Shown piece after piece: positions 2,884-56,700 of a DNA stretch of 64,000 bases. The translations under genes and the position numbers were made by a program. The stretch comes from an uncultured Candidatus Saccharibacteria bacterium. Lineage in GTDB: Bacteria > Patescibacteriota > Minisyncoccia > Phycocordibacterales > DATDWN01. How positions within the stretch are numbered: position 1 is the first letter of the stretch; each line of letters starts with the position of its first letter. The stretch spans positions 232,246-296,245 of the forward strand of contig CAYXWL010000001.1 of NCBI GenBank assembly GCA_964468795.1, in the 5' to 3' direction. The notes under the pieces are model-generated. The model saw nothing but the letters and a program-made list of their open reading frames with translations. It had not been told where the DNA came from and did no database searches.

Positions 2884-3948
2884 TTATTTTAACATCCTAT
2901 CCAGACCCTTTGCATTATTACTGTATTGATATGCACTCTCGATAGTAATCTCGCCATTTCTAACAAGCTCACTTAAGTACCTGTTTAGATCAATCATGCC
3001 TTCTCCTGAAGATGTTTCTATTATCGAATTAATCTCATGAACCCTGTTCTCTCTGATAAGGTTGGCCACTGCGCTGTTATTTATTAAAAGCTCTACAGCA
3101 GGAATAAGTCCGCCTGATATCCTAGGAATGAGCCTTTGTGACAAAATTCCAATCAAGCTTCCAGAAAGCTGAGTCCTTATCTGCTCCTGCTGGATAGCAT
3201 CAAAGGAATCAAGAATTCTTTCGATGCTTCTGGCTGCATCGTTGGTGTGCAGAGTTGAAAAGACCAAATGTCCTGTTTCCGCGGCAGTAACAGCTGTTGA
3301 CATATCTTCAGGTGAACGCATTTCTCCAATCATGATAACGTCAACGTCTTGCCTGAATGTTCCCCTGAGGCCAGCGTGGAAATCTGGCGTGTCCTGCAAG
3401 ACTTCTCGCTGATCAATGATTGATTTTTTTGATTCAAAAATATATTCGATCGGATCTTCAATTGTAATAATATGCTCGAATCTGTCTTGATTGATCCTTT
3501 CAATCATGGAGGCGAGAGTAGTGCTTTTGCCCTGTCCTGTAGGACCTACAACCAAAAAGAATCCCTGCTGTTTGGCTGTAAATGTTTCGATAATAGAAGG
3601 CAGGTTAAGCTCTGCAAAAGTCTTTATCTGCTTAGGAATGAGCCTCAAGGCTACGCTCATTTTCCCTACTTGAAAATATGCATTTCCTCTGAATCTCGTG
3701 CCGGTCTGATCATAAGCAAAATCCACCTCTTTCTTATCAATAAAAATTTCCTTTTTGGAATCGTCGAGCAAAACATCTAAAATGCCTTTCATGTCCTGCT
3801 TTGTCAGGACATGGCTGTTCGTCATAGGAATAAGTGTGCCGGATACTCGAATAATAGGCTGTCTGCCTTCAGACAAATGAAGGTCGGATGCATTTTCAGA
3901 AATCAAAATTGAAATCAGGCTTTCGATTGTTTTTTTGTAATCCGACAT
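2884..3948 (-). CDS. pilT: twitching-motility retraction ATPase
   Basis: 354 aa. Walker A GPTGQGKST, Asp box and His box (TLHTNDA) typical of PilT. Confidence 0.9.
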   Translation of the reverse strand: MSDYKKTIESLISILISENASDLHLSEGRQPIIRVSGTLIPMTNSHVLTKQDMKGILDVLLDDSKKEIFIDKKEVDFAYDQTGTRFRGNAYFQVGKMSVALRLIPKQIKTFAELNLPSIIETFTAKQQGFFLVVGPTGQGKSTTLASMIERINQDRFEHIITIEDPIEYIFESKKSIIDQREVLQDTPDFHAGLRGTFRQDVDVIMIGEMRSPEDMSTAVTAAETGHLVFSTLHTNDAARSIERILDSFDAIQQEQIRTQLSGSLIGILSQRLIPRISGGLIPAVELLINNSAVANLIRENRVHEINSIIETSSGEGMIDLNRYLSELVRNGEITIESAYQYSNNAKGLDRMLK

Positions 3949-4340
3949 TATTTTTTCTTATTCTTATAAATGTTCAGCACCTGATCTACAACTTCAGACG
4001 GAATGGTCATGGCTTTTATAATATATCCGTCAACTCCCATACTTTTTGCTTTATCCAGATCGTCTGCTTGGTTTGTGAGCATTATTATGGCTGCTTGCGG
4101 TGCAAGATTTTCAGTTCTAATAAATTTAAGGAGTTCTAAGCCATCAATGCCAGGCATAATTATATCCAAAACAATGATGTCAAAAGACTTGTCGTTTCTC
4201 AGCTTATCTAGGGCATTTTGACTGCTTGATGACGTATCAATTTCTAATCCGCTTTTTTTGAACTTCAAAGAATACATATCTAGCAGAAACTTGTCATCAT
4301 CAACCAACAGAATTTTTAATGCCTTTTTTTCTTGTATCAT
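3948..4340 (-). CDS. stand-alone response-regulator receiver (CheY-like)
   Basis: 130 aa. LVDDD .. DIIVLDIIMPGIDG .. K motif pattern of REC domains. Confidence 0.85.
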   Translation of the reverse strand: MIQEKKALKILLVDDDKFLLDMYSLKFKKSGLEIDTSSSSQNALDKLRNDKSFDIIVLDIIMPGIDGLELLKFIRTENLAPQAAIIMLTNQADDLDKAKSMGVDGYIIKAMTIPSEVVDQVLNIYKNKKK

Positions 4341-18414: not shown

Positions 18415-18420
18415 AGAAAA

Positions 18421-18442
18421 GCACCACGATTTTTTGTGGTGC
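18421..18442 (-). terminator. hairpin terminator at the AT/GC composition boundary
   Basis: GCACCACgattttttGTGGTGC, followed by a T-run on the minus strand. Ends the minus-strand GC-rich operon. Confidence 0.55.
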
Positions 18443-18575
18443 TGGAAGTGGTGTGCAGTCCAGATCTTTAGCATTGCGAGCGTTGGCCACCTCCTTGGTT
18501 TTCAACTTAGCCGCTCGCGTAGCGATCTGGTTACGGCTTGTGCCGTCATCCGTTCCCACTTAGGGAACGACTCAA

Positions 18576-18695
18576 TTAGTCCTCTGGCCTCTGCACATGC
18601 CTGGACCGCGATATGTTGGGAACTCCATGCAACATGAGTGCGCACTCCGCCTTTGTTACAGCGCCCTCCGCTAGAGGGTAACGTGCCGTCTTCAT
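18576..18695 (-). CDS. candidate 39-aa ORF (last gene of the GC-rich operon)
   Basis: Own translation MKTARYPLAEGAVTKAECALMLHGVPNISRSRHVQRPED, placed just after IR copy a. Below the track cutoff. Confidence 0.25.
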   Translation of the reverse strand: MKTARYPLAEGAVTKAECALMLHGVPNISRSRHVQRPED

Positions 18696-18703
18696 GGTGG
18701 AGC

Positions 18704-18745
18704 TCCCATCAAAAGTTTCAAATTATTTTAAAATCTTTGATGGGA
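18704..18745 (-). repeat. IR family copy a: TCCCATCAAA - AT-rich spacer - TTTGATGGGA
   Basis: 10-bp perfect inverted arms read directly; gene orientation is minus. Confidence 0.7.
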
Positions 18746-18885
18746 GGGCGAACAAATTTCGTTGCTCACCCATTGCACTGCGGTCTCGCCCTGCCTTATC
18801 AGCAAACGAAGTGTCTAGCTTCGTTGCTCGCTTAAGTCATTTCTGACATCAGCGAATTCGCGCAGGATCCCCGCTCAAGTTTGTG

Positions 18886-19386
18886 CTAACTCAGTCGACC
18901 CAATAAGGTTTGCCCTGTCGATACCAATCTGGCGTATGACCACCACTGACTGTAATCAGTGAGGATTTCCATACGCCAATGGCTGTCGACTCTGCCGGGA
19001 ATGGGCGGACACAATTCGATGAACGGAGATTGCTGATTGCGCAACTCCTCGTCCCTCGAAACGCGCCTCGCACACACCGGCAAAGTGACACCACTCGCAT
19101 CTTTGACGAATGCGACATTGGCACTGAGCCTCGACGAAAGTTTCCCACTGCATACTCGACCGTCTTTCTTTGGCGCAAGTAAGTTGAGAAAACTGTCGAT
19201 CGAGATAGGGCGATACCTCGTCAGGATCCGCTGCGCGTCGACGTATGTCCCGAGGTCCCAGAGAAGCAAATTGCTCTTCTCTTCGTTCCGGCGCACTTCC
19301 ATATTGCTAAAGTGACGCTCGAAAGTCTCACAAACCTCGAGGACGTTGACACTCACAAGGCGATCCCGAACGATGTAGTTTTCCAT
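18886..19386 (-). CDS. hypothetical protein (166 aa)
   Basis: Start set at MENYIVRDRL, preceded by AAAGGAGGG. GC-rich module. Confidence 0.55.
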   Translation of the reverse strand: MENYIVRDRLVSVNVLEVCETFERHFSNMEVRRNEEKSNLLLWDLGTYVDAQRILTRYRPISIDSFLNLLAPKKDGRVCSGKLSSRLSANVAFVKDASGVTLPVCARRVSRDEELRNQQSPFIELCPPIPGRVDSHWRMEILTDYSQWWSYARLVSTGQTLLGRLS

Positions 19387-19420: not shown

Positions 19421-19534
19421 AAAGAACTTTGGAACAATTTTGTTCCTTCAGAATACTTAACCTAGGTTAAACCCTCTGAAGGAAGTCCGAGGATATATGA
19501 CTTCCTCGGACGATACCGGGCTGACGCGCCGATA
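19421..19534 (-). promoter_or_regulatory. conserved structured leader, copy B (the homolog is at 26174..26288 on the plus strand)
   Basis: ~75 nt nearly identical to copy A: ATCGGCGCGTCAGCCCGgTATCGTCCGAGGAAGTCATATATCCTCGGACTTCCTTCAGAG. Covarying hairpins and GTTCTTT follow. Confidence 0.5.
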
Positions 19535-19544
19535 GACGTTATTG

Positions 19545-20093: not shown

Positions 20094-20128
20094 TGTTTTT
20101 CTCCAAAGAACAAAGGGAAATTATTTTC

Positions 20129-20165
20129 CCGTCAAAACTCTGAAATAAATTCAAAACTTTGACGG
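20129..20165 (-). repeat. IR family copy f (variant arms CCGTCAAA / TTTGACGG)
   Basis: Preceded on the minus strand by hairpin GCCGAACttcgGTTCGGC. Followed by GGGAAAataaTTTCCC, GTTCTTT, GGAG and the start of 19545..20093. Confidence 0.6.
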
Positions 20166-20421
20166 AAGCCGAACCGAAGTTCGGCAAGTGTGATGGTAAA
20201 CTCGGAGTAGTTGTAGCCACTCTTTGCTCTTTAGGTAACTTGCGCCCTTAGCGAATACCCTGATTCCATCGCCAGACAGAATCACGGGAGAGTGGTTAAA
20301 GCTACAACTTCTAACCAACTACTCGCTCAATATGTATCACGGGCCATCACGCTCCACGACACGTCGCAACATTTTTCCTGCTCAAAAAATTCTACGATGT
20401 ACCGTGGAACTTTACAAAGAA

Positions 20422-20474
20422 CTTCTGTTTCGTCGTTTCCGACTCATCAGGTGAGACATACATCTCACGACAGG
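20422..20474 (-). ncRNA. hammerhead ribozyme, type III (HHR1)
   Basis: Minus strand: cCUGUC|GUGAGA-UGUAUG-UCUCAC-CUGAUGA-GUCG-GAAA-CGAC-GAAAC-AG. Full catalytic core, GUC cleavage site. Confidence 0.8.
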
Positions 20475-20558
20475 TGCCTTGGGTGCTAATCAAGACAAAT
20501 GATTTTTGGCCCTACTGCCCCTTGCGGGTACTCGGACCTTCTGTTGCCAAGCCGGTCA

Positions 20559-20939: not shown

Positions 20940-21315
20940 ACTCACCTCCTATTAAAGAACTTGAGACAAACCATTTGCCTCGTCATAATAATCAAAATCT
21001 TGATTTCTCTGACGAGACCCCGACTGATATTTTAGTCGGGATGTTGTGGTGGTGACTGTAAGCGATTGCAGTCACTTACAACCTTGAGATGTTCGGCGAA
21101 TTCCGAGCACCTCTTAGTGAATGTTTGGCTCCACCCGTATCCGAAATAGATACGGGAATCTGGCGCAAGCGCTGGGTGAGAATCTGCAACTCTCACGCTC
21201 TAAGCACCATTCACTCCCTCATGTATCATGGGCCACCACAGCTCCACGACACCTTGCACAACATTTTTTAGAAAAATTCTGTGCGAGATGTCGTGGATAG
21301 ATCAAAAGAACAGTT

Positions 21316-21366
21316 TCTGTTTCGTCCTTTCGGACTCTTCAGGGAGAATACACATTCTCCGACAGA
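21316..21366 (-). ncRNA. hammerhead ribozyme, type III (HHR2)
   Basis: Minus strand: CUGUC|GGAGAA-UGUGUA-UUCUCC-CUGAAGA-GUCC-GAAA-GGAC-GAAAC-AGA. Only the variable N7 differs from the other copies. Begins 6 nt after the stop codon of 21373..21651. Confidence 0.8.
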
Positions 21367-21372
21367 GCCGGA

Positions 21373-21651: not shown

Positions 21652-22032
21652 GATACCTCCTAGTTTTGAAAGAATAGTGGGTGTTTGCAGGATCCTCTCT
21701 GACTTTAATAGTCCGTGGCTTATCCACAGCTATTTCCTAGTGGTAACTTACCCACAAGGTCGTCTTTGATTAATCACCGCTAACATTGCACACCCGCGCA
21801 ACGCCAAGATGCCGGCAAGCATCTGGTGGATCGGAGCAAAGTTGCCTGGCCTCAGTTCTGTACGATTGCAGCCACTTTGGACTGCAATCTACCTCTCAGG
21901 CTGCCATGCCTTCGAAACACAGAAGTGTACCTTTGGCTCTGCTCCTAACGAAGATCCATCGGACTCCGGAATTTACCAAACTATTTGTCGAGCAAATTCC
22001 GAAATCCGTGAACCATTTTATTTTAAAGAACT

Positions 22033-22083
22033 TCTGTTTCGTCCTTTCGGACTCATCAGGCGAGACACTCATCTCACGACAGA
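22033..22083 (-). ncRNA. hammerhead ribozyme, type III (HHR3)
   Basis: Minus strand: UCUGUC|GUGAGA-UGAGUG-UCUCGC-CUGAUGA-GUCC-GAAA-GGAC-GAAAC-AGA. 5-bp open stem III. Confidence 0.85.
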
Positions 22084-22133
22084 CCAGGATGACGCTCTGG
22101 TAGACGTTTAGGAGATTCTGTTGCCGAGCTCTC

Positions 22134-22352: not shown

Positions 22353-22388
22353 GTCACTCTCCTCAAAGAACTCGGAACGAACCATTCG

Positions 22389-22460
22389 TCCCATCAAAGA
22401 AATCAAGCTTTATTATTTTCTTGAAAGTAAACTTTCAAGTTGTTAATTGCTTTGATGGGA
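22389..22460 (-). repeat. IR family copy b: TCCCATCAAAG - 50-nt AT-rich spacer - CTTTGATGGGA
   Basis: 11-bp perfect arms. The spacer contains hairpin CTTGAAAgtttacTTTCAAG. Confidence 0.7.
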
Positions 22461-22566
22461 GGGCAAACGATGTTTTGTCGCTCACCCATGTTTACCCATG
22501 CTTTTACGCGGAAGGATTTTTCCACAACTTCGGTGCCTTGGCCGAAGGTTGACGCACCCAGTCGGA

Positions 22567-22743
22567 TTACTTCTTCCGATAGCCAGGCTTCCCGCCACAG
22601 GGAACGGAAACTGCTTTCACAGATTCCCGTTTTGCGGTTTTCAGCCTGCCGTCGTAGAAGTAACCAGCCCGAGCGAGGATCTTGTTGGCTTGCGCCTCCA
22701 AAGTCCTCTGATGGTTTGTGGCCACCATTGTGATTGTTGTCAT
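22567..22743 (-). CDS. hypothetical protein (58 aa)
   Basis: MTTITMVATNHQRTLEAQ.. preceded by GAGGAGGATC. First ORF after a ~370-nt leader. Confidence 0.4.
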   Translation of the reverse strand: MTTITMVATNHQRTLEAQANKILARAGYFYDGRLKTAKRESVKAVSVPCGGKPGYRKK

Positions 22744-23116: not shown

Positions 23117-23145
23117 AGTATATACTAAACGTATATTTTTGTCAA
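23117..23145 (-). promoter_or_regulatory. sigma70-type promoter for the minus-strand GC-rich operon
   Basis: Minus strand TTGACA - 17 nt - TATACT. Confidence 0.55.
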
Positions 23146-23280: not shown

Positions 23281-23309
23281 TTGACAAATAAAATGAATGG
23301 GTATATACT
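23281..23309 (+). promoter_or_regulatory. sigma70-type promoter for the candidate ncRNA
   Basis: TTGACA (23281-86) - 17 nt - TATACT (23304-09). Confidence 0.6.
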
Positions 23310-23314
23310 TATAG

Positions 23315-23658
23315 GCAGACGAGTACCCAGGGTGTTCTTGGGGAAAGGAGGGTTCCATGCACGACTAGTGCGGGCTGGGGAACCGGGGGTTGTTAACCCC
23401 CGGTGTGGCCTCCAGTTTGGCTAGTCATAGATTGTGGAGGAAGCAAAAGTGGACGACTAGCACATAGGTGGTTCCAGTTCCATGCGTCCGACCACCAGAT
23501 AGTCAGAGGACGCGAGACAGATCATCTTCGTTCAGTTCAAGGTGGAAAATCCACCAGACAAAGAGAGAAGTGTGATTCCGTCAATCGTTCCCGGCGATTA
23601 GTCTTCGGGAACAACATGCCGTGGCGACAACTTACCGTCGCCACGGCATTTCTTATTT
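23315..23658 (+). ncRNA. candidate novel structured RNA (~340 nt) with its own promoter and intrinsic terminator
   Basis: GC-rich island between a consensus promoter and terminator ATGCCGTGGCGACaacttaccGTCGCCACGGCAT+TTTCTTATTT. Many helices, e.g. CCGGGGGUUguuAACCCCCGG and GGUGGAaaaUCCACC. Confidence 0.5.
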
Positions 23659-24393
23659 ATGATCAAAGATATATTTAATTAGGCTTTTGAGAGTGTCTGC
23701 AAACTCTTTGCTTTTTATTAAAATACCAGATGGTCTCTTTCCCAGAATAGATATTCTCACTTGGTCACCATAAACAGTAATATCGCTACTTAAAGGATAC
23801 TTCTCTGAATTTATTTTTAGCCTCTCTCCCATTTCATCTGATGGTTTATCTATATTTTTTGAAGTGTATATAGATCTAGATTTAATTCCTCTTGAAATCC
23901 TACGATCTTTTAGTCTACTTGTTTCTTTATCATCGAAAATATCCTTAACTAGATCTAAAGGATAAACTATATAAACAGGTTCATCAGGAAGTATTTTTAT
24001 AAAAGTATCATCATTTGAGCTAAGCACCCCTTCTTTACCATCAAAAAACTGAACCATTGGTTTTTCCCCTTGTTCTCTTTGGATACCTTTTAATTGTGGG
24101 ACGATAATATCTAGACCTTTTTTATTCTCTTCTAATAAGTGGATCTGTCTTTCTACGAACAAGCCAAGTTTTTCTGGAGGTTCAGCAATATAAAAAGTCT
24201 TTTTTCCAATATTTGATTCACTAACTAAACCCTTCTTCTGTAAAGATTCCAGGATCACGTATGCAGTAGGACGCTTTATCGTTGCTTTTTCGGCAATTTC
24301 AGTTACAAGAGCTTTATCAAAGGAAAGAAGAGCTAAATAAACTGCTGCTTCCTTATCACTAAGCCCAATATCTTTAAGGTATTTTTCAAACAT
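23653..24393 (-). CDS. TrmB-family transcriptional regulator
   Basis: N-terminal LGLSDKEAAVYLALLSFDKALVTEIAEKATIKRPTAYVILESLQKKGLV winged HTH. AT-rich like the host. Confidence 0.75.
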   Translation of the reverse strand: MFEKYLKDIGLSDKEAAVYLALLSFDKALVTEIAEKATIKRPTAYVILESLQKKGLVSESNIGKKTFYIAEPPEKLGLFVERQIHLLEENKKGLDIIVPQLKGIQREQGEKPMVQFFDGKEGVLSSNDDTFIKILPDEPVYIVYPLDLVKDIFDDKETSRLKDRRISRGIKSRSIYTSKNIDKPSDEMGERLKINSEKYPLSSDITVYGDQVRISILGKRPSGILIKSKEFADTLKSLIKYIFDHK

Positions 24394-25238: not shown

Positions 25239-25284
25239 AATATACCATTTTGTGCTTGACAAGTCAAGTAAAGTATGCTAGGAT
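25239..25284. promoter_or_regulatory. back-to-back divergent promoters with adjacent -35 boxes that together form a palindrome
   Basis: Plus: TTGACA(25256-61)-17-TAGGAT. Minus: TTGACT(25267-62)-17-TATATT. The -35 boxes lie in CTTGACaaGTCAAG. Confidence 0.5.
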
Positions 25285-25353: not shown

Positions 25354-25662
25354 ATGACGCAGAATGCATATGATTTGAAGAAGATCGTGAACGGTCCGAG
25401 CAAGATGGACCTCATGCTGGCGATGTTCGACAGCAGCTTCCCGAATCACCGTTCAGTTGTCTTCAACTTTGAGAATGAGGGAGCGAGCAACTTCAAAGCT
25501 AGTGCTCCCTGTCACATCTCGATGGTTGAGAAGGAAGACGGTTCTGGCGAAAGCTTTAACTTCGAAGGAACTCTCTCCTACGACAACTTCCGGACAGGTA
25601 AGAGGGTGCGTGGTTGCTATAACACCATGCGCCGGACTGGCTTCTTCCACTTCGTGCAGTAG
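25354..25662 (+). CDS. hypothetical protein (102 aa)
   Basis: MTQNAYDLKKIVNG.. after AAAAAGGA. Confidence 0.45.
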   Translation: MTQNAYDLKKIVNGPSKMDLMLAMFDSSFPNHRSVVFNFENEGASNFKASAPCHISMVEKEDGSGESFNFEGTLSYDNFRTGKRVRGCYNTMRRTGFFHFVQ

Positions 25663-25690
25663 TTCTTCTGGGCGAGTTGTTAACTCGCCC

Positions 25691-25730
25691 TCCCATCAAA
25701 GTAATTAAATTTTTGATTTCTTTGATGGGA
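25691..25730 (+). repeat. IR family copy c
   Basis: GGGCGAGTTgttAACTCGCCC hairpin, then TCCCATCAAAG-18 nt-CTTTGATGGGA. Confidence 0.7.
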
Positions 25731-25782
25731 CAATTTGGTCCCGATTTGTTCATTTCAATTTTCAGTGCCCAAAGGAGGGCCC

Positions 25783-26154: not shown

Positions 26155-26173
26155 TCAACATAAAGATCCGTCC

Positions 26174-26288
26174 ATCGGCGCGTCAGCCCGATATCGTCCG
26201 AGGAAGTCATATTATCCTCGGACTTCCTTCAGAGAGTTCAACTTTGTTTGAAAATTCTGAAGGAACGAATAGTTCGTTCTGGTTCTTT
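26174..26288 (+). promoter_or_regulatory. conserved structured leader, copy A
   Basis: ATCGGCGCGTCAGCCCGATATCGTCCGAGGAAGTCATATTATCCTCGGACTTCCTTCAGAG ... TTCTGAAGGAACGAAtagTTCGTTCtgGTTCTTT, then GGGGAGG and ATG at 26302. Confidence 0.5.
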
Positions 26289-26301: not shown

Positions 26302-26520
26302 ATGTTCGTCAGCAATACCACGATTTTTCACTGCCCGATGTTCGGGTGCGGTCACGAAAACGAACGTTCGAACCGCACGAAGCCGGAAGACATCGTTTGC
26401 GAAGGATGTCACGCACCTTGGTGGCCGATGGAACTCGGTTTCATTGGAAATGATCCGAAAGAAAACATCGAGTTCGCACGGACTCATGATCGGAAAGGAA
26501 ATCTTCGTGAGCTGGCGTAA
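26302..26520 (+). CDS. zinc-ribbon-like small protein (72 aa)
   Basis: MFVSNTTIFHCPMFGCGHENE..CEGCHAPWW. Confidence 0.45.
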   Translation: MFVSNTTIFHCPMFGCGHENERSNRTKPEDIVCEGCHAPWWPMELGFIGNDPKENIEFARTHDRKGNLRELA

Positions 26521-26550
26521 TTCTTCTGGGCGAACGTAATTTGTTCGCCC

Positions 26551-43533: not shown

Positions 43534-43594
43534 CAAAAAAACAGAACGCCATTTATGGCATTCATCAAAAAACTCCCGTTCGGGAGTTTTTTGA

Positions 43595-44158
43595 TTAGTT
43601 AAAATTTACGTAACTTGGCTTCTGCAAAAGCGAAGCGTCTTTTGCCCATGGGTGGCAGATCCAGCTTGCGCTGTTTGTCCCTGACCCTAATACAGTTCCG
43701 TTTGTGAAATCCTTTGGAACGATTGCAGGGAAATCTGAAATTGATTTTGGCACTGAAAGAGTTCCTGTGCCTCGTCCTTCAGTCCAAATATACATATATC
43801 GTCCGTCATAGACCATGATATTTGATGATCCCCCCAAAGTCCTAAACTCCCCTCTCATTTTTCCATCAGCAAAGAAAATTGTATTTGTCGTTCGCTTTGA
43901 TGGCGTAACCTCTTCGTATGTACATTCATAACTTCCCTTCTGCGGGAAAATATTTGTAAATACATCTGTCTTTACCGTATTTGCAACTTTTGCAGAATTC
44001 TTTTTTTGCTGTGAGTTATTTACAGCTGACTTAGAAGTTGAAGTGCTTGTGGAAGGATAGTTTGTCTCGTTTGATCGAGGCAAGAGTGCAAATACCACAA
44101 GGATGACCCCGACGGCGATGGCAGCTCCATATACCCACATTGGGTGTTTTAATTTCAT
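43595..44158 (-). CDS. hypothetical exported protein
   Basis: 187 aa with an N-terminal TM anchor. Confidence 0.55.
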   Translation of the reverse strand: MKLKHPMWVYGAAIAVGVILVVFALLPRSNETNYPSTSTSTSKSAVNNSQQKKNSAKVANTVKTDVFTNIFPQKGSYECTYEEVTPSKRTTNTIFFADGKMRGEFRTLGGSSNIMVYDGRYMYIWTEGRGTGTLSVPKSISDFPAIVPKDFTNGTVLGSGTNSASWICHPWAKDASLLQKPSYVNFN

Positions 44159-56520: not shown

Positions 56521-56700
56521 TATATCCCTGATAAAGAAAAAACTCCATTTATGGAGTTTTTTCTTTACACGAGTTTGTCGTTCTGAGGATTTTTGCTAGA
56601 GTTCGAGGTGGGAGTGCGGATTGCGACCAAGCTGTACAAGTAGTATTGCGCGGGAGCAAACGCAAGCGACAAACAAAGAAATCGAGCAAAAAGACCAGAA

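Follow-up and report, generated by a model that had tools for sequence, protein, structure and literature searches.

We analyzed a 64,000-nucleotide stretch of contig CAYXWL010000001.1 from an uncultured Candidatus Saccharibacteria bacterium (hereafter the window) and focused on a repeated element located between the genes of two GC-rich modules, one on each strand (Table 1). Each module carries a single near-consensus sigma-70 promoter and a single strong intrinsic terminator, both found at the module ends by consensus scan, and the minus-strand array starts with a conserved first gene of 58 residues (22567-22743). The initial annotation had described the element as a six-copy family of 10-11 bp inverted repeats around an AT-rich spacer. 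We find that the inverted repeat corresponds to P2, the middle one of three hairpins in a unit of ca. 85-120 nt (P1-P2-P3-GUUCUUU). This unit is strand-specific and structurally conserved, lies inside operons and moves with the gene upstream of it.

Table 1. Units and other features of the window. P1 to P3, hairpins of the unit; score, bits of the unit covariance model or, for the ribozymes, of the Rfam model.
Feature	Position	Strand	P1	P2	P3	Heptamer	Score (bits)	Remarks
Unit 1	18696-18771	-	18746-18771	18704-18745	none	none	46.5	Outside seed alignment; start codon at 18695
Unit 2	19421-19538	-	19485-19511	19443-19484	19431-19446	19421-19427	62.5	Arm variant UUCCUUCAGAG/UUCUGAAGGAA; extra conserved stretch upstream, 19512-19538
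Unit 3	20105-20185	-	20168-20185	20127-20167	20115-20130	20105-20111	73.3	Antisense 22.4
Unit 4	20954-21040	-	21019-21040	20977-21018	20964-20980	20954-20960	47	Arm variant UCUCGUCA/UGACGAG; outside seed alignment
Unit 5	22365-22487	-	22461-22487	22389-22460	22374-22392	22365-22371	33-52	50-nt branched tip of P2
Unit 6	25662-25754	+	25670-25690	25691-25730	25727-25742	GTTCTTC 25662-25668; GTTCATT 25748-25754	69.7	Antisense 34.4; copy named in the initial annotation
Unit 7	26169-26288	+	26196-26223	26224-26265	26262-26280	26282-26288	61.4	Arm variant UUCCUUCAGAG/UUCUGAAGGAA; conserved stretch upstream, 26169-26195
Unit 8	26520-26600	+	26528-26550	26551-26590	26587-26600 (weak)	none	51	
Unit 9	27150-27241	+	27159-27178	27179-27220	ca. 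27217-27231	27150-27156 (upstream); 27235-27241 (downstream)	71	
Type III hammerhead ribozyme	20422-20476	-					42.3	E 1.6e-6; between cistrons, followed by GUUCUUU
Type III hammerhead ribozyme	21314-21368	-					44.4	E 4.2e-7; between cistrons
Type III hammerhead ribozyme	22031-22085	-					41.5	E 2.8e-6; between cistrons
Sigma-70-type promoter, minus-strand module	23117-23145	-						TTGACA, 17 nt, TATACT; conserved in related locus L031
Intrinsic terminator, end of minus-strand module	18420-18443	-						
Sigma-70-type promoter, plus-strand module	25256-25284	+						TTGACA, 17 nt, TAGGAT; 15-nt core TTGACAAGTCAAGTA also in related locus L099
Intrinsic terminator, end of plus-strand module	27777-27806	+						
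TrmBL2-like winged-helix DNA-binding protein	23653-24393	-						246 residues; Pfam TrmB domain

A covariance model was built from 38 copies and run over the whole window with no filters. Nine members were recovered on the gene strand (33-73 bits, E-values of 1e-16 to 4e-6), three of which lie outside the seed alignment. They comprise the six copies described initially, all confirmed in place with 20127-20167 replacing 20129-20165, two arm variants with arms TTCCTTCAGAG/TTCTGAAGGAA (units 2 and 7, 84-95% identical to each other), and the CTCGTCA..TGACGAG repeat (unit 4), to which the same architecture had rightly been ascribed. The family was thus real but its size understated. Eleven of the 12 arms of the six original copies match TCCCATCAAAG exactly or with one mismatch, against a chance expectation of ca. 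0.03 for a single 11-mer in 64 kb on both strands. All nine units are confined to the two GC-rich modules and run in the direction of the local genes, as had been observed for the first six, and nothing comparable was found by the model in the other ca. 50 kb of the window. The suggestion that the motif might be a host repetitive extragenic palindromic (REP) sequence is therefore inapplicable. A CRISPR array had been dismissed with good reason, and the same holds for a TIGR-type array: the repeats are inverted and irregularly spaced at 0.4-1.6 kb with genes between them. The inverted repeat in front of the target gene of a nearby retroelement (31712-31775), previously proposed as a relative, was undetected by the model and has a different order of parts. 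Weak scores of 21-24 bits were obtained at 43554-43617, just past the transfer-messenger RNA gene, and at 56523-56595; both are probably ordinary AT-rich terminator hairpins and not members of the family.

The arms of the repeat are as initially reported, but the AT-rich spacer itself pairs and continues the stem, so that the repeat forms one hairpin of ca. 18 bp with a loop of 4-5 nt. The lower stem of P2 comprises 11 bp of conserved sequence (UCCCAUCAAAG/UUUUGAUGGGA) and the upper stem ca. 7 bp of variable sequence, with a tip that ranges from 4 to ca. 40 nt among copies. In an alignment of 32 sequences, 97.6% of P2 cells are paired compared with 89.2% in shuffles, and compensatory changes on both sides occur in 11 of 18 pairs. 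None of 500 shuffles matched P2 for pairing, covariation score or double-change counts, and sliding the partner columns lowered pairing to 40-68%. In 96% of the 51 copies examined, P1 forms a GC hairpin with 6 bp or more, as opposed to 7% of shuffled controls. Its sequence takes many unrelated forms with stems of 7-12 bp, and in nearly all copies it directly abuts the 18-bp P2 without a gap. P3 has a stem of only 4-8 bp and shares the last four bases of P2 (GGGA). GUUCUUU comes a few bases past P3 (2-6 nt or more) and 6 to 30 nt past P2, and the ribosome-binding site is located 0-10 nt later. Fold z-scores of the unit hairpins range from -3.9 to -5.7. All of the ordered parts listed in the initial annotation (GC hairpin, inverted repeat, small hairpin sharing GGGA, GTTCTTT, Shine-Dalgarno sequence and start codon) were found with matching sequences, as was the lack of small hairpin and heptamer in unit 1. 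No Rfam 15 family gave a match overlapping the unit at E-values up to 5 in the window region and up to 0.05 in 12 related loci, self-cleaving ribozyme classes included. Literature searches returned no description of the motif, and the three-hairpin unit is apparently undescribed so far.

The unit most likely acts in RNA and not as a DNA operator. In 31 of 32 copies, P2 has a G.U at pair 11, and over 51 copies the non-Watson-Crick pairs read on the sense strand amount to 70 G.U and 3 A.C, a ratio that is somewhat circular because the orientation of copies outside the window was partly picked by pair count. For the window copies orientation is fixed by the genes, and here the eight non-Watson-Crick pairs are without exception G.U when read on the gene strand, including the three of unit 8 P2 on the plus strand. 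Further, the sense strand folds more stably than the antisense strand in 48 of 51 copies, and the covariance model scores sense above antisense at all nine window copies. These data bear on the earlier proposal of a double-stranded DNA site (terminator, promoter or operator) bound by a dimeric regulator such as the TrmB-like or the sigma-region-4-like protein. The arms are nearly palindromic, and the TrmB-like gene is the conserved neighbor of the arrays, both of which would suit such a site. Yet the arms are spaced 16 to 50 nt apart among copies, which together with the G.U asymmetry argues against a dimeric protein on double-stranded DNA, and the palindrome is broken, on a single strand, by the conserved T for C at pair 11. 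As to the sigma-region-4 gene, it represents one of the variable cassettes and is missing in the other loci. The predicted structure of the TrmB-like protein (pLDDT 89) is closest to TrmBL2, which it matches over its full length (E 3e-12), an archaeal chromatin protein for which the Protein Data Bank (PDB) entries describe a novel mode of DNA binding. We consider a double-stranded operator extremely unlikely.

The position of the units in their operons also speaks against a transcription signal. A consensus scan detected no promoter-like site, with -35 and -10 hexamers 16-18 nt apart, inside the units on the gene strand, and no U-tract follows P1, after which UCCCAUCAAAG comes directly. As promoter and terminator are found only at the module ends and none in the units, the units are internal to polycistronic transcripts. 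The notion of a terminator/promoter/operator unit is not borne out by these results; TTGATG or TTGAAA as a -35 element paired with GTTCTTT as a -10 element is ruled out by the varying distance of 6-30 nt between P2 and the heptamer. For 50 of 70 copies, the start of a gene preceded by a ribosome-binding site lies at most 90 nt downstream, with a median of 37 nt after P2, while the same was true for 10 of 70 in the antisense-side control.

Three type III hammerhead ribozymes, overlooked in the initial annotation, occupy equivalent intergenic positions in the minus-strand module. All three score just below the Rfam gathering threshold of 48.5 but retain an intact catalytic core. On the upstream side a small hairpin abuts stem III of each ribozyme, and on the downstream side each has GUUCUUU. 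Related locus L031 contains one related hammerhead and one degenerate copy. Non-coding segments of 250-300 nt after two of the hammerheads (20168-20425 and 21019-21314, minus strand) are mutually homologous and both contain a long hairpin, UCCACGACA...UGUCGUGGA. An additional structured repeat module of ca. 190 nt is found at 18430-18625 on the minus strand of the window and at 3093-3292, 3905-4118 and 4905-5077 in L031. It is closed by the stem GGUCCAGG/CCUGGACU, ends with CUGGACUGCACAC followed by GUUCUUU, occurs several times per array, and shows ca. 81% identity between the window and a Zambryskibacteria contig (L010).

Since P2 and P3 use the same four bases, the two pairings compete, and both are maintained. 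A change of GGGA to GGGG is accompanied by CCCC downstream (L031, L096), two window copies with GGAA have UUCC as both upstream and downstream partner, and the fifth pair of P3 covaries too. Alternative structures at the RNA level were among four options raised initially and are the only one that fits. A regulatory RNA switch would exploit this competition. Here, a protein or a terminating ribosome would open the base of P2 and leave GGGA to the downstream UCCC, and P3 with the U-rich heptamer would attenuate transcription or alter access to the ribosome-binding site, gene by gene. Mutually exclusive hairpins that are both kept by covariation, an upstream-gene stop codon within or just before P1 in several copies, and the conserved lower stem of P2, suggestive of sequence-specific recognition, are in line with such a device. 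The consensus scan also flagged P3 plus GUUCUUU as terminator-like, but P3 is weak and the heptamer, which is interrupted by C, lies at least 2-6 nt away, a poor geometry for which we rejected this candidate terminator. In addition, the downstream genes are mutually unrelated and thus offer no common signal to sense, P2 is transcribed first and is far more stable than P3, and no conserved RNA-binding protein was identified. A switch therefore appears decidedly unlikely.

Comparison with related loci revealed that genes and units travel together. From the TrmB-like gene through the leader to the first gene, the window and its close relative L031 are 74-77% identical. This similarity ends within P2 of unit 5, past which only non-coding modules are in common. 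In case of L099, the common block is limited to 26604-27240 and consists of a leader, gene 26658-27119 and unit 9. It begins just past P3 of the preceding unit, ends at the downstream heptamer of unit 9, and in L099 is located directly behind the promoter with a different gene coming next. In L100, a homologue of gene 18886-19386 has the same unit type behind it, while a different unit type precedes it and a different gene comes after. Based on the L099 and L100 comparisons, a cassette consists of a gene and the unit on its 3' side. At L031 4119-4145, a heptamer and a strong Shine-Dalgarno sequence are followed by a start codon with an immediate stop (AGGAGGTGAGTATGTAG), which looks like the remnant of a lost cassette gene. 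GTTCTTT is enriched in the window (37 observed, 19 +/- 4 expected) and strand-locked, with 38 sense and 4 antisense occurrences in 25.7 kb of arrays. It is present at every type of joint: past hammerheads, past the ca. 190-nt RNA-like module, and upstream of both P1 and the ribosome-binding site. Direct heptamers flank some units (27150/27235; L031 3293/3375 and 6325/6406).

These observations make it possible, though on balance unlikely, that the unit is a DNA recombination site whose hairpins fold in single-stranded DNA and guide a site-specific recombinase to cut at GTTCTTT, resulting in integron-like capture and excision. Gene and 3' unit forming a cassette with neighbors that vary between genomes, homology with L099 that stops exactly at the heptamer, the strand-locked heptamer at all module joint types and the direct heptamers around some units would all be expected of such a site. 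The arrays are also richer in GC than their flanks, in AT-rich hosts, and the cassette genes are nearly without relatives. Apart from the conserved first gene and the TrmB-like gene, none of the module genes tested had a relative in 41 related loci, two of them compared with 5.8 billion proteins yielded only one and three relatives, self excluded, and the only Pfam matches of cassette proteins were Sigma70_r4 and one marginal zinc finger. However, no recombinase is conserved beside the arrays, where the conserved neighbor is TrmBL2-like and a serine recombinase is near only 3 loci. The base of the stem is UCCC/GGGA with no R''/R' core, P2 has no extrahelical bases, and its wobbles favor the coding strand, unlike attC sites, which fold on the bottom strand. 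Moreover, P3 and the ribosome-binding site are coupled, and hammerheads operate at the RNA level. Finally, ordinary homologous recombination between repeats of 80-90 nt would yield the same cassette pattern.

TrmB-like homologues are located upstream of arrays and in the same direction in 12 loci. In a protein-first test, two of three long contigs encoding a TrmB-like homologue carry units just downstream, and these contigs contain ordinary housekeeping genes. The full-length TrmBL2 fold match indicates that the TrmB-like protein is a DNA-binding regulator, and a role as nuclease or recombinase was rejected on this basis. No tyrosine recombinase was present among the Pfam domains checked around the window arrays, where not every open reading frame was scanned, or in the Pfam lists of L096-L098. 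A large serine recombinase with Resolvase, Recombinase and zinc-ribbon domains (29426-30757, plus strand) is found between the plus-strand module and a diversity-generating retroelement, with a tRNA gene nearby (33795-33883); homologues with 31-33% identity occur near units in L045 and L076. The retroelement (30849-33719) has a template repeat at 32114-32231 on the plus strand and a variable repeat at 30855-30972 in a minus-strand target gene, and 15 of 16 differences between the repeats fall at template adenines. Its reverse transcriptase is split in two frames (32629-33231 and 33171-33719), and a weak RT-16 RNA match was obtained at 31945-32117. The 18-34 kb region may be or contain an integrated element.

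In antisense orientation between the TrmB-like gene and the array promoter, we found a GC-rich candidate non-coding RNA of ca. 335 nt (23316-23650, plus strand) with a sigma-70 promoter at 23281-23309 and a terminator at 23616-23649. It has a fold z-score of -8.1, no Rfam match and ca. 74% identity to its counterpart in L031, and it contains a conserved three-codon mini-open reading frame (AUG CAC GAC UAG) behind a strong Shine-Dalgarno sequence. On long Parcubacteria contigs, genes for NYN-domain proteins (predicted RNases) lie near TrmB-like genes (L096 7976-9277 and 18011-18580; L098 11589-12137), one of them directly behind a TrmB paralogue, and RNase Y is another neighbor. This proximity may be a coincidence.

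The exact motif was found in 45 genome records. Among the records showing the complete architecture, most carry a Patescibacteria label (Saccharibacteria, Parcubacteria, Zambryskibacteria, Wildermuthbacteria, Sungiibacteriota and Minisyncoccia), and a small number are short contigs assigned to Nitrospira or Gammaproteobacteria bins. Most of 26 metagenome matches show the same architecture and several come from groundwater filter fractions. Scanning related loci with a motif model, as recommended initially, was productive: the covariance model recovered ca. 90 further sense-strand copies in 513 kb, with many loci holding 2-8 copies, usually downstream of a TrmBL2-like gene. Exact-pattern matches in Streptococcus, Prochlorococcus and other non-Patescibacteria mostly have neither P1 nor heptamer and represent chance look-alikes, none of which scored under the covariance model save two weak Bacteroidota matches. 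A viral origin was also rejected. The exact motif is absent from IMG/VR, 24 viral matches to a looser pattern have no full P1 plus heptamer and are chance-like, the TrmB-like protein has no relatives in viral contigs, and among the module proteins only the sigma-region-4 cassette matched PHROGs.

A selfish miniature mobile repeat of the miniature inverted-repeat transposable element (MITE) or REP kind, inserting at GTTCTTT and tolerated between genes, could give rise to such a distribution across several Patescibacteria classes, to direct GTTCTTT repeats around several copies, and to sub-families that have a common P1 type in different genomes. We nevertheless judge it highly unlikely. The units always have the orientation of the genes and are regularly spaced from the ribosome-binding site, their arms are internal and not terminal, and copies are confined to these operons with none in the other ca. 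50 kb of the window. Compensatory changes and the conserved G.U pair reflect selection on the fold, and no transposase is associated with the arrays.

Taken together, we infer that the unit acts post-transcriptionally, as an element for processing or insulation between the cistrons of polycistronic mRNA that also marks cassette boundaries; we give this reading a probability of roughly 50%. The long, AU-rich P2 duplex, which stacks directly on P1 and so suits a double-strand-specific endonuclease, would be cut by such an enzyme, e.g. RNase III, or by a dedicated enzyme that reads the lower stem. After the cut, the GC-rich P1 would stay as a protective 3' hairpin of the upstream message, while the freed GGGA would pair anew with UCCC downstream, and the resulting P3 would protect the 5' end just before GUUCUUU and the ribosome-binding site of the next gene. 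Hammerheads, located in equivalent places, would serve the same purpose with no protein involved. In the DNA, the repeats probably double as shared sequence for cassette exchange, which could proceed via ordinary homologous recombination or via some site-specific activity at the heptamer. The processing model accounts for the missing gap between P1 and P2, for the differing base composition of these two hairpins, for the use of the same four bases by P2 and P3, and for the similarity to the hammerheads. An RNase P-type substrate cut at the P1/P2 junction was rejected because an RCCA-like 3' tail is lacking, as judged by reading the sequence.

Several points weigh against the processing reading. 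Besides the partial circularity of the 70-to-3 ratio, G.T wobbles are tolerated in single-stranded DNA, so the wobble bias excludes a double-stranded operator and not a DNA hairpin of the sense strand. Non-coding segments instead of genes come after some copies. Both the proposed nuclease cut and the protection ascribed to P1 and P3 are predictions. Further, RNase III has little sequence preference, which leaves the conserved lower stem of P2 unexplained; this conservation suggests a specific partner.

A wider proposal, which we put forward tentatively and consider rather improbable, is that Patescibacteria carry an undescribed cassette-array system, an integron analogue built from different parts in which a dedicated exchange mechanism, at the DNA or RNA level, would act at the heptamer. 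Its platform may consist of the TrmBL2-like gene, the ca. 335-nt antisense RNA, one promoter and the small conserved first gene, followed by exchangeable near-orphan genes that may be joined by the three-hairpin unit, hammerheads and the ca. 190-nt RNA, with GTTCTTT at each joint. If true, cassette exchange in these arrays would have solved, for a second time and independently, the problem addressed by integrons. The ultra-small Patescibacteria (CPR) account for a large share of bacterial diversity, and very little is known about how they control gene expression and acquire genes. The unit provides a searchable motif, represented by a covariance model and ca. 90 copies, and a marker for the borders of variable cassettes. 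Within one operon it also ties hammerheads to a counterpart that is either protein-dependent or structural, a link relevant to the role of bacterial intergenic hammerheads.

With respect to known systems, the unit is not a REP element, MITE, CRISPR array, terminator or promoter/operator and falls into no Rfam family. In genetic layout it comes closest to an integron array, yet the defining attC features tested fail. As with attC, an imperfect inverted repeat is located 3' of a small, promoterless and mostly unknown gene with which it moves, a 7-nt motif starting with GTT is found at the joint, and the array has one orientation behind a single promoter. Integrons have a neighboring tyrosine-recombinase integrase with an attI site and the Pc promoter, whereas the unit arrays have no attI site and no integrase among the domains checked. 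GTTCTTT has YYY where GTTRRRY needs RRR and is positioned 6-30 nt outside the stem, whose base is UCCC/GGGA instead of the R'' (RYYYAAC)/R' (GTTRRRY) cores. P2 is a continuous helix (97.6% paired) with neither extrahelical bases nor an unpaired central spacer, and whereas the shape is conserved in attC sites, here the stem sequence is conserved and the wobbles favor the coding strand.

In its mode of action the unit would seem closest to the RNase III sites that separate the T7 phage early genes and to the RNase III-processed Correia elements of Neisseria. The latter (NEMIS) are short intergenic inverted repeats that are co-transcribed, form long RNA hairpins and are cut by RNase III, changing mRNA stability. 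They have terminal inverted repeats and a TA target duplication and occur in both orientations and in hundreds of copies within one genus, whereas the units described here are oriented, limited to particular operons and distributed across several classes. REP elements and bacterial interspersed mosaic elements (BIME) of enterobacteria are intergenic operon palindromes that can shield upstream mRNA from 3' exonucleases; REP elements are species-specific, spread genome-wide and linked to RAYT transposases. The units show no genome-wide spread, species restriction or RAYT link, and in contrast to MITE or REP sequences nine of them are placed in two operons in one direction, with direct GTTCTTT around only some. 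Hammerhead ribozymes were reportedly described between genes by Perreault et al. in 2011. The unit resembles the hammerheads of its own operon in intergenic position, in the heptamer that follows, and in having a small hairpin upstream and a structured 5' end downstream of the cleavage site, which in the unit is putative, but its conserved bases are paired and not in loops, and it matches no Rfam ribozyme model. The T7 sites (R0.3 to R1.3) are related hairpins between early genes on one long transcript, all in gene direction, and after the cut the remaining 3' hairpin stabilizes the upstream message. The likeness lies in an intercistronic hairpin of about two turns (the 18-bp P2, abutted by P1) in a polycistronic operon. 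While T7 sites have an internal loop, the stem of the unit is a continuous duplex of ca. 18 bp with a conserved lower part, and the unit comprises two more hairpins, one sharing GGGA. Unlike its phage counterpart, it is chromosomal, found in Patescibacteria and tied to exchangeable cassettes.

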